Positions 38,282 through 47,614 of a stretch of 64,000 nucleotides of DNA are shown here, piece by piece (position 1 is the first letter of the stretch; every line of letters begins with the position of its first letter). The DNA comes from a virus. The notes under the pieces were generated by a model that was not told the origin of the DNA, did not search any database, and saw nothing but the letters and a program-made list of their open reading frames with translations. The stretch lies in IMG/VR virus record IMGVR_UViG_3300025141_000048. The stretch is one strand, 5' to 3'. The translations under genes were made by a program, and so were the position numbers.

Positions 38282-38367
38282 TCCACAGTACCCGAGTGGT
38301 AGCAGGGGGCGGACTGTTAATCCGTTAGGCGTAAGCCTCGTCGTTGGTTCGAATCCAACCTGTGGAG
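38282..38367 (+). tRNA. tRNA-Asn(GUU) with long variable arm
   Basis: TCCACAG/CTGTGGA-G; loop CTGTTAA; V-arm AGGC-GTAA-GCCT. Confidence 0.9.
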
Positions 38368-38437: not shown

Positions 38438-38986
38438 ATGATCCAGAAGTCAGAAAAGGTAAAGAAATGGCGTAAAGAAACGAAGAAACGTATTGTCGAG
38501 TCCATGGGAGGCGGATGCGTATGTTGCGGATACACACGATGCTTGAGAGCATTGGATCTGCATCACCTGGATCCTGAGGAAAAGGAATTTGGATTTGGCA
38601 GGATAATGGCGAATCCCATACGATGGGAAAAGATCGTCGAAGAATTGAGGAAATGTGTTCTTGTATGCAAGCGATGTCATGCCGAAATCCATGATGGGAT
38701 TCTAAAGATCCCGGAAAATGCGACCAGGTTTGATGAATCGTTTACCACGTACAAGAACCAAAAGAAAGAAGCTTGTCCGGTATGCGGGAATGATAAACCG
38801 CTGCATCTGATTACTTGTTCGAAGTCGTGTGCAGCAAAGAGGGCAGGTAAAGTCAATTGGGATGCAATTGACTTGAAAGGATTGTTGAAAGAAAAGACCA
38901 GCATCGTAAAGATAGCTGAACGGATAGGGGTTTCAGATACCTCTGTTTACAAACGAATGAGGAAATTGGGACTGGAACGCTGTTAA
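38438..38986 (+). CDS. HNH homing endonuclease with C-terminal HTH
   Basis: GGGCVCCGY…ALDLHHLDP…KCVLVCKRCHAEIH. Confidence 0.9.
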   Translation: MIQKSEKVKKWRKETKKRIVESMGGGCVCCGYTRCLRALDLHHLDPEEKEFGFGRIMANPIRWEKIVEELRKCVLVCKRCHAEIHDGILKIPENATRFDESFTTYKNQKKEACPVCGNDKPLHLITCSKSCAAKRAGKVNWDAIDLKGLLKEKTSIVKIAERIGVSDTSVYKRMRKLGLERC

Positions 38987-39092: not shown

Positions 39093-39178
39093 GGATCGGT
39101 AGTCAAGCGGTTGAAGACATCGGACTTTTAATCCGTCAGGCGTAAGCCTCATCGCAGGTTCGAATCCTGTCCGGTCCA
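39093..39178 (+). tRNA. tRNA-Lys(UUU) with long variable arm
   Basis: GGATCGG/CCGGTCC-A; loop CTTTTAA; V-arm AGGC-GTAA-GCCT. Confidence 0.88.
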
Positions 39179-41554: not shown

Positions 41555-41583
41555 CTCCATAGCCGGAAAATTCCTGATATAAT
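41555..41583 (+). promoter_or_regulatory. CCATAG-class promoter 8/28
   Basis: CTCCATAG-CCGGAAAATTCC-TGATATAAT. Confidence 0.8.
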
Positions 41584-41823: not shown

Positions 41824-42002
41824 ATCTACGGTGTATGATGTCAACGGACAGAACATCTGCATTGCCAATTGTTTGACGCTGAAGCCGAAAGAAGAGGGTT
41901 TGCGACAAATCATTTTCTGGCCCAGCGGGCGGATTACATATGATTGGCAACATGAAGGTACAATTCTCTTGTAATCGTCGAAGATGACGATACAATGCAT
42001 AT

Positions 42003-42030
42003 GGGGCTATAGCTCAATTTTGGGAGAGCA
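42003..42030 (+). pseudogene. 5' half of a tRNA-Ala
   Basis: GGGGCTATAGCTCAATTTTGGGAGAGCA, ending at the anticodon stem. Confidence 0.75.
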
Positions 42031-42105
42031 TTGGGAAGCCGCTGCTAAGATCGTGGCTTGGGTTCGTTTGGAGAACGGGATTAGAATCACCGAGTATCAT
42101 GTGTT

Positions 42106-42519
42106 ATGAGGTTGATGAATCTGGAAACTGAAGAGGTGATTCTGATACGGGTTATTTCTCAGGAAAAGGATGGTATCTGGGGTCACATTGTGGCTTCGAA
42201 TGGCACCGTGGATCGTCAACCTGAGTTCTTTCCGATCATTGAATGGAGAGAGTTTACTGTGATTGGCCTTGGAGAGCAATCTTCTCGGTTTAAGGCGAAA
42301 AGAGAGCAAGCAGTTACATACAAAGGTGGGAAGTGCGAACGTTGTAACTACGACAGATGTATGCAGGCATTAGAATTTCATCATCCAGATCCATCATCTA
42401 AGGATCCAGATTACAGCAGAATCAAATCATGGTCATGGGATAGGGTGAAGAAAGAGATTGACAAATGCATATTGCTTTGTAGTATTTGTCATCGAGAAAA
42501 ACATGCGGGGATATGGTAA
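42106..42519 (+). CDS. HNH homing endonuclease
   Basis: YKGGKCERCNY…ALEFHHPDP…KCILLCSICHREKH. Confidence 0.9.
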   Translation: MRLMNLETEEVILIRVISQEKDGIWGHIVASNGTVDRQPEFFPIIEWREFTVIGLGEQSSRFKAKREQAVTYKGGKCERCNYDRCMQALEFHHPDPSSKDPDYSRIKSWSWDRVKKEIDKCILLCSICHREKHAGIW

Positions 42520-42578
42520 AATTGGGATCACATCGCCTTTGCACGGCGGAATTCGGGGTTCGAGTCCCCGTATCTCCA
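42507..42578 (+). tRNA. tRNA-Ala(UGC), diverged; overlaps the HNH stop
   Basis: GGGGATA/TATCTCC-A (G3-U70); loop TTTGCAC. Confidence 0.88.
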
Positions 42579-42583
42579 CTTAA

Positions 42584-42654
42584 GCTCCTGAGGTGTTACG
42601 GTAGCACGTCGGACTGTCGATCCGAAAGCCGGGGTTCGACTCCCCGTAGGGGCG
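42584..42654 (+). tRNA. tRNA-Asp(GUC)
   Basis: GCTCCTG/TAGGGGC-G; TCGGA-CTGTCGA-TCCGA. Confidence 0.88.
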
Positions 42655-42655
42655 T

Positions 42656-42690
42656 TTCCGAAGGTTGGGGGTTCGAGTCCCCTGGTGGCG
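42656..42690 (+). pseudogene. Orphan tRNA 3' half (isotype unknown)
   Basis: AGGTT-GGGGG-TTCGAGT-CCCCT-GGTGGCG. Confidence 0.6.
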
Positions 42691-42745
42691 TTGAAATAAA
42701 AACGGTGTGCAAATGGTATACGCAAGACAGTAGGGCAAATAATAT

Positions 42746-43098: not shown

Positions 43099-43135
43099 GC
43101 CTCCGTAGCTCAATTGGTAGAGCATTCCGCTTACG
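43099..43135 (+). pseudogene. 5' half of a tRNA-Val(UAC)
   Basis: GCCTCCG-TA-GCTC…GAGC-A-TTCCG-CTTACG, then unrelated sequence. Confidence 0.7.
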
Positions 43136-43205: not shown

Positions 43206-43278
43206 GCCAAGTAGCTCAGTTTAATTTGGAAGAGCGGTGGAGTGAAATCCCACAGGTCGCAGGTGGGAGACCTTGGTA
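43206..43278 (+). pseudogene. Degenerate tRNA-Phe(GAA), damaged T arm
   Basis: Anticodon arm GTGGA-GTGAAAT-CCCAC; T loop missing. Confidence 0.6.
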
Positions 43279-43338
43279 GAAGAAGCGAAGAAATGCAGCC
43301 TCTTGTGTTGTCGATGTCATAGAGAAATAGAGAACGAA

Positions 43339-43411
43339 GGCTAGTAAGCTAATCTGGTGAAAGCGTCCGCCTGAAGAGTGGAAGAGCCCGGCTCGAAACC
43401 GGGACTAGCCA
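43339..43411 (+). tRNA. tRNA-Phe(GAA)
   Basis: GGCTAGT/ACTAGCC-A; loop CTGAAGA; T loop CTCGAAA. Confidence 0.88.
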
Positions 43412-44860: not shown

Positions 44861-45484
44861 ATGCATAAGACGGCCAAGAAACGAGCAGAACAAAAGCGAA
44901 AGCTTATCGAATTACTAGGAGGCAAATGCGAAGTATGTGGATATAATCGCAATGCGGCTGCCCTGGATTTTCATCACCGTGATCCAGACGAGAAAGACGC
45001 TTTTATTGGACATCTCATTAATTTCCACAAGTTTGAGCAGGCTTATGAAGAAGCGAAGAAATGCACTATTCTTTGCAAAGTATGCCATACAGAACATCAC
45101 AATCCAGACCTGGAGATCAAGGTTTCGGATAATGGGGATGTTCATTATATTAATCAGGAGCTTGATAGCATCGTCAAGACCTGCTCTGAGTGCGGGGAAT
45201 ATTCGGGAGGTATGACTTTCTGTTCTCAAGAATGTGCAAAACTTTCGCAACGTAAAGTAAAAAACAGACCATCTGAAAAAGAATTGAATGAATTGCTTAA
45301 GTCAATGAGTAAATGTGCGATTGGGAAGAAATTCGGAGTCAGCGAGGCTGCGATAAGGAAGTGGGTTGAGGCATCTAAACAGGCTAACGAATCGATCAAA
45401 AAAGCGTTTGCACCAGTTACCAAAGGATTGAATGAACATAACAAAAGGATGAGAGAATTAGGTCAAAATATTAAGCTATCTTGA
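44861..45484 (+). CDS. HNH homing endonuclease with C-terminal Zn-finger/HTH
   Basis: LGGKCEVCGY…ALDFHHRDP…KCTILCKVCHTEHH; GVSEAAIRKW. Confidence 0.9.
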   Translation: MHKTAKKRAEQKRKLIELLGGKCEVCGYNRNAAALDFHHRDPDEKDAFIGHLINFHKFEQAYEEAKKCTILCKVCHTEHHNPDLEIKVSDNGDVHYINQELDSIVKTCSECGEYSGGMTFCSQECAKLSQRKVKNRPSEKELNELLKSMSKCAIGKKFGVSEAAIRKWVEASKQANESIKKAFAPVTKGLNEHNKRMRELGQNIKLS

Positions 45485-47299: not shown

Positions 47300-47593
47300 A
47301 TGCTGAAGATCTCTCAAGAACGTATCGAAGAACTTTGTCTTCAGATCATGGCGGACCCAGCCAAGATCGGTGGATCTATTAATTGGTTCACCCAAGAGAT
47401 CCAAGAGTACTTCAACGTTGATCTCAATTCTGAGGAGACTTTGGATGATCATCCCAGATGGAGGTCAAAGGTTTATCGTACTCTTCAGTCTCTGGTAAAG
47501 AAGAAGTCGGCGCAAAGAGAAAGAGTTTACGGCGGCACCGGTTTTCTTCGACCGGGCTGGTACTTCGTGTATGGTCTCTATAAGGACTCGTAG
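47300..47593 (+). CDS. Hypothetical protein (possible winged helix)
   Basis: Leaderless; WRSKVYRTLQSLVKK helix. Confidence 0.55.
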   Translation: MLKISQERIEELCLQIMADPAKIGGSINWFTQEIQEYFNVDLNSEETLDDHPRWRSKVYRTLQSLVKKKSAQRERVYGGTGFLRPGWYFVYGLYKDS

Positions 47594-47614
47594 CTCAGGG
47601 GTCAGAGCAGGGCG
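47584..47614 (+). pseudogene. Orphan tRNA 5' half
   Basis: GGACTCG-TA-GCTC-AGGGGTCA-GAGC-A-GGGCG. Confidence 0.65.

Follow-up and report, generated by a model that had tools for sequence, protein, structure and literature searches.

An HNH endonuclease gene that ends inside a diverged tRNA-Ala gene, downstream of an orphan tRNA-Ala half, in the tRNA array of an uncultured phage

The window analyzed here is the whole 64,000-nucleotide stretch of viral DNA deposited as IMG/VR record IMGVR_UViG_3300025141_000048. It carries a dense tRNA array at about 38.2-47.8 kb, in which 19 tRNAs were detected by ARAGORN and one more by Rfam, and a tmRNA gene is located upstream of this array at 13.9 kb. The Ala isoacceptors are clustered within the array. 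At the Ala locus described below, three features follow each other on the + strand: an orphan 5' half of a canonical tRNA-Ala gene (42003..42030), an HNH endonuclease ORF of 137 amino acids (42106..42519), and a complete but sequence-diverged tRNA-Ala(UGC) gene (42507..42578). The identical HNH protein is recorded on seven contigs, the longest of which measures 338 kb, and the source is therefore taken to be an uncultured giant phage. In addition, a 90%-identical relative is recorded on Tara/NCBI contigs of up to 47 kb.

The product of the ORF is a predicted member of the HNH (His-Me finger) endonucleases, an assignment based on Pfam, PHROG, and a direct reading of the sequence. It matched PHROG 2255 ('HNH endonuclease') with an E-value of 4e-26 and Pfam HNH (PF01844) with 21.0 bits (E 3.7e-4), just below the cut-off of 21.4. 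All invariant residues of the family are kept (CxxC, HH, and CxxCH). Specifically, the alignment columns occupied by C77/C80, H92-H93, C125/C128-H129, and H133 are invariant or nearly so. The HNH domain comprises residues 58-136, where 18,739 representative proteins match at E<=1e-3, and residues 1-57 had no homologues among 1.8 billion representatives. Translation might instead begin at an internal in-frame GTG (42259), which GGAGAG precedes by 8 nt and which is potentially the true start. A single-sequence AlphaFold model of the protein was too poor for use (mean pLDDT 43.6). The ORF lies outside any intron or intein, as it has its own start, is in frame with no host protein gene, and shows no group I or II intron match. 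A consensus scan also returned a promoter-like site on the + strand (42458..42485; TTGACA, 16 nt spacer, TAGTAT) which falls inside the 3' end of the HNH gene, 21 nt before the tRNA, and for which no conservation in relatives was found.

The complete tRNA-Ala(UGC) was recognized by ARAGORN and by Rfam (54.7 bits). Read directly from the sequence, it combines a cloverleaf and a UGC anticodon with G3-U70, A73, and a normal anticodon loop, i.e., the sequence features of a putatively functional tRNA-Ala. Its variable loop has 4 nt and its D stem is weak, with an A12-C23 mismatch. An alternative fold is favoured over the cloverleaf by 3.5 kcal/mol, whereas cloverleaves are the predicted fold of the resident Ala genes. 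The last four sense codons of the HNH gene and its TAA stop coincide with tRNA positions -2 to 13, so that the stop occupies positions 11-13 and tRNA +1 is the third base of an HNH codon. A previous sequence-only reading of this DNA had proposed that the last HNH codons overlap a complete, diverged tRNA-Ala(UGC) that retains G3-U70, and this was confirmed as an overlap of 13 nt on the + strand (42507..42519). The adjacent tRNA-Asp has a 19-nt stretch (the T arm and the first two acceptor bases) in common with the new tRNA-Ala, with one base differing, and the two tRNAs may have arrived together.

The orphan half was identified by local alignment. It consists, in order, of the acceptor strand GGGGCTA, TA, a GCTC/GAGC D stem with a 10-nt D loop, and A26. 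When aligned with the 5' half of the tRNA-Ala(CGC) of the window, 27 of 29 columns match, the similarity reaches 42031, and the single gap reflects a D loop longer by 2 nt. The alignment score depends on the partner: 20 for Ala(CGC), 18 for Ala(GGC), 15 for Trp, and 9 for the adjacent complete Ala(UGC). The highest background score among 2692 tiles of the same window was 12, and the canonical Ala 5' half to base 26, also noticed in the sequence-only reading, is thus present at 42003-42030. Its tRNA likeness stops at position 26/27. We favour the view that this half is the scar of a displaced resident Ala gene. The anticodon of the old gene is lost, and that it was the same isoacceptor is an assumption. 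A sigma-70-like match on the + strand (41969..41996; TTGTAA, 16 nt spacer, TACAAT), which agrees with the consensus at 9 of 12 positions and derives from a consensus scan only, ends 6 nt before the orphan half; this putative promoter may be that of the old tRNA-Ala.

None of the 3' half of the old Ala gene is present at the locus, and an Rfam scan with lax filters detected neither a full tRNA nor an intron in 41960-42506. The leader between the scar and the HNH start (42031..42105, + strand) likewise contained no tRNA or intron in the lax scan and no stable fold (z-score +1.05). Within it, a decayed stretch resembling a T arm (42074-42098) scored only 10, has an acceptor that does not fit, and was dismissed as chance. 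An orphan 3' half at 42655-42692 was also rejected as the partner of the Ala 5' half, as their acceptor strands are not complementary and it resembles tRNA-Thr. This piece, a T arm with an acceptor, follows at once on the tRNA-Asp (both within 42584-42692), and its best match is the 3' end of tRNA-Thr(UGU). A 41-codon ORF (41984-42109) crosses the orphan 5' half, and its terminal ATGA overlaps the start codon of the HNH gene, which is probably fortuitous.

Several explanations could be confronted with this anatomy directly. If the locus were a split gene, the 5' half and the downstream sequence would be exons around an HNH-bearing group I intron. A search relaxed to an E-value of 10 matched no group I intron. 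The tRNA half breaks off at position 26/27 instead of in the anticodon loop, the tRNA that follows is a whole gene in its own right, and pair 5:68 between the old acceptor strand and the downstream 3' strand would be a mismatch. We thus give this model virtually no credence, and a group I intron-encoded HNH is refuted as far as sequence analysis can show. An integrase-borne island that targets tRNA genes was discarded as well: no integrase-like ORF was found near the Ala locus, and the remaining piece is a 5' half that does not repeat the sequence of the new tRNA. Local duplication of a 5' half followed by drift is unlikely, since the copy free of constraint would need to have remained canonical while the functional one changed at about 9 of 26 positions.

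We consider it reasonably probable that the leader, the HNH gene, and the tRNA-Ala(UGC) arrived as one piece, which took the place of the 3' two-thirds of a canonical tRNA-Ala gene resident in the array. The incoming unit would be a free-standing HNH cassette of about 550 bp (42031-42578) made up of the leader, the ORF, and the tRNA, whose first 13 bases would finish the ORF, with 28 bases from the start of the old gene left as the scar. By analogy with SegB and intronless homing, the nuclease would, during co-infection, cut an HNH-free tRNA gene of a related phage, and the break would be repaired from the HNH-bearing genome. On the left, the junction would lie inside the old Ala gene at about position 27, so that the 5' half survived; on the right, it would coincide with the tRNA 3' end or lie within it. 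As the tRNA supplied has kept its Ala identity (G3-U70, A73, and UGC), the array would thus lose no decoding capacity; the new allele might also be immune to the nuclease. Since the ORF ends inside the tRNA, 5'-end maturation of the tRNA would cut the HNH message before its stop codon, which probably limits the amount of nuclease. Two resident genes, Ala(CGC) and Ala(GGC), share the old 5' half nearly exactly and are intact 250 bp away, and from this we infer that the specificity of the nuclease must involve bases 3' of position 27, or that its expression is very low.

The Ala locus was next compared with related loci. Close relatives of the phage were found neither in the phage collection nor in IMG/VR, the latter searched through the HNH protein, a RecA-like neighbour, and a methyltransferase-like neighbour. 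Exact-pattern scans of IMG/VR with the old Ala 5' half and with the new D arm gave no match, and the sole match to the T arm/acceptor pattern was the tRNA-Ala(CGC) of an unrelated high-GC phage. A scan of genome contigs for relatives of the locus was also negative, and a scan of metagenomes retrieved one related contig (L028, from Tara), which is 82-90% identical to the window. This contig diverges from the window at 41583, i.e., 420 bp upstream of the cassette and before the Ala locus, and no HNH-free allele of the Ala locus was found in IMG/VR or the phage collection. The synteny (41555-41583 of the window versus 5284-5316 of L028) ends just after a conserved phage promoter (CTCCATAGCC ... 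TATAAT), beyond which L028 has a radical-SAM-like gene that the window does not have.

The metagenomic contig does cover the site of the window's first HNH gene. In L028, tRNA-Asn and tRNA-Lys are adjacent with no HNH gene between them, and its tRNA-Asn is homologous to the complete tRNA-Asn of the window. The complete tRNA-Asn beside the first HNH gene is therefore a resident and not cargo, which contradicts, for this instance, the notion that the nuclease is accompanied by a replacement tRNA. At 2389-2553 of L028, an ordinary 74-nt tRNA-Lys comes directly after the tRNA-Asn, whereas the tRNA-Lys of the window has a long variable arm. This tRNA-Lys(UUU) has anticodon and variable arms nearly identical to those of the neighbouring tRNA-Asn (38282-38367 and 39093-39178).

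A resident tRNA-Asn is one of the observations that suit a different model of the Ala locus, in which the diverged tRNA-Ala(UGC) was already resident and only the HNH ORF, without a stop of its own, was inserted at its 5' edge. The tRNA would then be a docking or target site, and the HNH insertion or a separate event would have truncated a neighbouring tandem Ala gene, a setting compatible with the clustering of Ala isoacceptors in the array. Against this model, the new Ala differs throughout from the resident Ala paralogues, which the orphan half matches, and between the scar and the HNH domain lie a leader of 75 nt and the 57 N-terminal residues that lack homologues.

Relatives of the nuclease in other phages bear on both models. 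In five IMG/VR loci, the HNH ORF ends within the first 6-10 nt of the downstream tRNA, which is Lys in L003, Ile in L004, Tyr in L005, Val in L008, and Pro in L015, and the stop is usually the TAG of the tRNA U8-A9-G10. Likewise, the HNH gene ORF44 of Felix O1 overlaps a tRNA-Ile by 7 nt, an HNH gene of Bacillus phage BCU4 ends on base 1 of a tRNA-Ser, and a 127-aa HNH ORF of the KVP40-like Vibrio phage VH1_2019 (MN794232) has its TAA stop at positions 8-10 of a tRNA-Asn. The ORF/tRNA overlap, which had been proposed as a physical tie between nuclease and immune tRNA allele, is thus recurrent across the family, with the stop falling in the first 1-13 nt of the tRNA. Across these unrelated tRNAs the codon register is kept, as would suit docking of the ORF alone at a resident tRNA: in 8 of 10 overlap cases, a codon has its third base at tRNA +1 (binomial p about 0.003 if the cases are independent, which is doubtful). 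On the other hand, locus L015 argues against insertion of the ORF alone. There, two halves of an old tRNA-Pro(UGG) flank a leader, an HNH gene, and a new tRNA-Pro(UGG), and the halves are mutually complementary (5' acceptor CAGGGTA and 3' acceptor TATCCTG). This demonstrates that a nuclease and a same-anticodon tRNA can be inserted jointly, in this case between the halves of one gene.

The Felixounavirus tRNA-Ile locus offered the closest view of such alleles. The flanks of the locus are >95% identical in Felix O1, GEC_vB_B1, and wV8, yet each of these phages has its own tRNA-Ile(GAU) allele, unrelated to the other two, and the locus has at least three alleles. The allele of Felix O1 (allele A) is present in 47 records and the HNH gene in only 12; in all 10 of these HNH records with coordinates checked, the gene abuts allele A. 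Phage phiWec177 has allele A with an exact empty site (CCTCCAAT followed directly by GCTGTGA), and the Felix O1 HNH gene sits between the same bases, with CAAT repeated. The HNH ORF alone can therefore come or go before a tRNA, and the precise empty site beside the same allele implies that an HNH-linked tRNA may be a docking site and not an immune replacement. Both the empty site and the 12 versus 47 records favour insertion of the ORF alone.

Felix O1 ORF44 (NC_005282 25030-25584) resembles the Ala-locus gene in its homologous HNH domain (49% identity), in ending inside a tRNA, here tRNA-Ile(GAU), of which the stop takes up positions 5-7, in its codon register, and in the non-canonical D arm of the linked tRNA. 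ORF44 is polymorphic among close relatives. It differs in its zinc-ribbon type N-terminus, that of the Ala HNH being an orphan. Moreover, replacement or insertion in Felix O1 was clean, leaving no orphan half, and an exact empty site exists. Presence/absence polymorphism of the HNH gene was observed in homologues, namely Felix O1 ORF44 and the window's Asn HNH compared with L028, so that this polymorphism, like joint insertion, is seen in relatives only. Taken together, insertion of the HNH ORF alone at a resident tRNA-Ala(UGC) seems to us rather unlikely at the Ala locus. The proposed pairing of the HNH gene with a replacement tRNA held in part: the Ala cassette does form a unit in the wreck of an older Ala gene and joint insertion is evident in L015, but the tRNA at the Asn locus is a resident.

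The array contains two more intact HNH genes, at 38438-38986 and 44861-45484, both flanked by tRNA pieces. The Ala locus had been described as the third instance of a single cassette, and this did not hold. The three proteins are only 34-36% identical to each other, the Ala-locus HNH is closer to foreign proteins (52-67% identity), and the other two genes have a mirrored layout, with the complete tRNA upstream and an HTH domain at the C-terminus. By their sequences, the three are predicted members of one family and not copies of one cassette. A fourth, decayed cassette with the layout of the Ala one lies 700 bp downstream at tRNA-Phe (43206-43411). It starts with the 5' two-thirds of an old tRNA-Phe(GAA) (43206 to about 43264). 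Next comes the remnant of an HNH C-terminus, 26 aa long and terminating in ...CHREIENEG, whose TAG stop occupies positions 4-6 of a new tRNA-Phe(GAA) (43339-43411). The T loop of this new tRNA-Phe is unusual (CTCGAAA).

In total, at least seven orphan tRNA pieces were found in the window. They adjoin HNH genes or remnants at four places and, outside the window, in L015. Three pieces, at 42655, 43099, and 47584, have no adjacent HNH gene, as would be expected if the orphan Ala half were an ordinary decayed duplicate with no tie to the gene beside it; given the repeated association of pieces with HNH genes, we regard such a coincidence as very improbable. Orphan pieces in this number are also compatible with rearrangement within the array, in which breaks made by the nuclease in the phage's own tRNA genes would be repaired by microhomology or unequal recombination with no transfer between phages. 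The targets of SegB include several tRNA genes of the phage that encodes it (PMC13096335; PMC2330249), and the 19-nt stretch shared, with one base different, by the new Ala and the adjacent Asp points in the same direction. The complete Ala(UGC), however, is not copied from any other tRNA of the window and the three HNH genes are not recent paralogues, and we judge rearrangement within the array to be an improbable origin of the locus. As to the pieces themselves, the orphan 5' halves at 43099-43127 and 47584-47610 have canonical D arms and no intact HNH gene adjoining, and the latter is located just upstream of a tRNA(CAU) with a long variable arm.

The best-described counterpart is SegB of phage T4. 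SegB is a free-standing GIY-YIG endonuclease encoded in a tRNA cluster that cuts tRNA genes at a conserved T-arm motif, with relaxed specificity, and its homing carries neighbouring tRNA genes along (PMC2330249). Maturation of tRNA-Arg cuts the segB message between the last codon and the stop codon, and T4, which carries SegB sites, is protected by low expression and not by immune alleles (PMC2330249). SegB homologues are described as widely tied to tRNA genes and as drivers of segmental amplification (PMC13096335), which makes use of microhomology between the tRNA 5' end and the segB 3' end (PMC13096335; PMC2330249). Like SegB of T4 and T6, the Ala-locus nuclease is encoded by a free-standing gene in a phage tRNA array with an ORF ending at a tRNA 5' end; unlike the GIY-YIG enzyme SegB, it is an HNH protein. 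The sections of the SegB paper that we drew on describe neither a same-anticodon replacement allele nor an orphan half (PMC2330249). This paper also cites 2004 work on HNH enzymes encoded among phage tRNA genes, for which control of expression through processing of the primary transcript was proposed (PMC2330249). HNH genes in tRNA arrays are also mentioned for T5, mycobacteriophages, and in surveys (PMC5966550; PMC6409571), and the Felix O1 genome paper reports six HNH genes and draws no link to tRNAs (PMC3185647).

Given the T4 SegB precedent, the overlap and its likely regulatory meaning are not new. The Ala cassette is best read as a variant, with an HNH enzyme, of the free-standing homing endonucleases known from phage tRNA clusters. 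To our knowledge, no replacement tRNA or scar has been associated with the HNH enzymes of the 2004 work, and our literature search found no paper on a same-anticodon replacement tRNA fused to an HNH gene or on orphan halves as scars. The layout in which a gene is overwritten and a replacement supplied appears to be undescribed. Mobile endonuclease ORFs of fungal mitochondria (e.g., in Allomyces atp6) insert into an essential gene and supply a substitute part, while the old part persists as a pseudo-fragment. These concern protein genes of an organelle in which the 3' end is replaced, whereas the Ala cassette supplies a whole tRNA gene.

A broader and more tentative proposal is that HNH enzymes whose ORF stops in a tRNA act as a gene drive specialised for tRNA genes. 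Their ORF may dock at a fixed codon register on tRNA +1, borrow its stop from the near-universal U8-A9-G10, and carry a diverged same-anticodon tRNA that overwrites resident tRNA genes. If this were true, selfish nucleases would not merely reside in tRNA clusters but swap tRNA genes for unrelated alleles of the same anticodon, and the turnover of tRNA alleles in phage arrays would have them as a main driver, in Felix O1 and KVP40-like phages as well as in marine giant phages. This would explain the litter of half genes in phage tRNA arrays, the unrelated tRNA alleles at one locus in close phages, and the odd D arms, and the resulting tRNA diversity could aid escape from host defences that cleave tRNAs. 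The tRNA-Ile locus represents a laboratory-accessible case of tRNA allele turnover, and Felixounaviruses are a tractable system for the idea of tRNA replacement.

These observations are also of value for annotation, as deposited genomes hold orphan halves and unannotated HNH ORFs. The HNH ORF of VH1_2019 (L072 739-1122), located between tRNA-Trp and tRNA-Asn, has no annotation in its record. In Felix O1, a gene resembling tRNA(CAU) that follows tRNA-Lys and precedes the HNH gene (L067 about 1163-1241) is without RefSeq annotation, and its counterpart is annotated as tRNA-Met in other Felixounavirus records.
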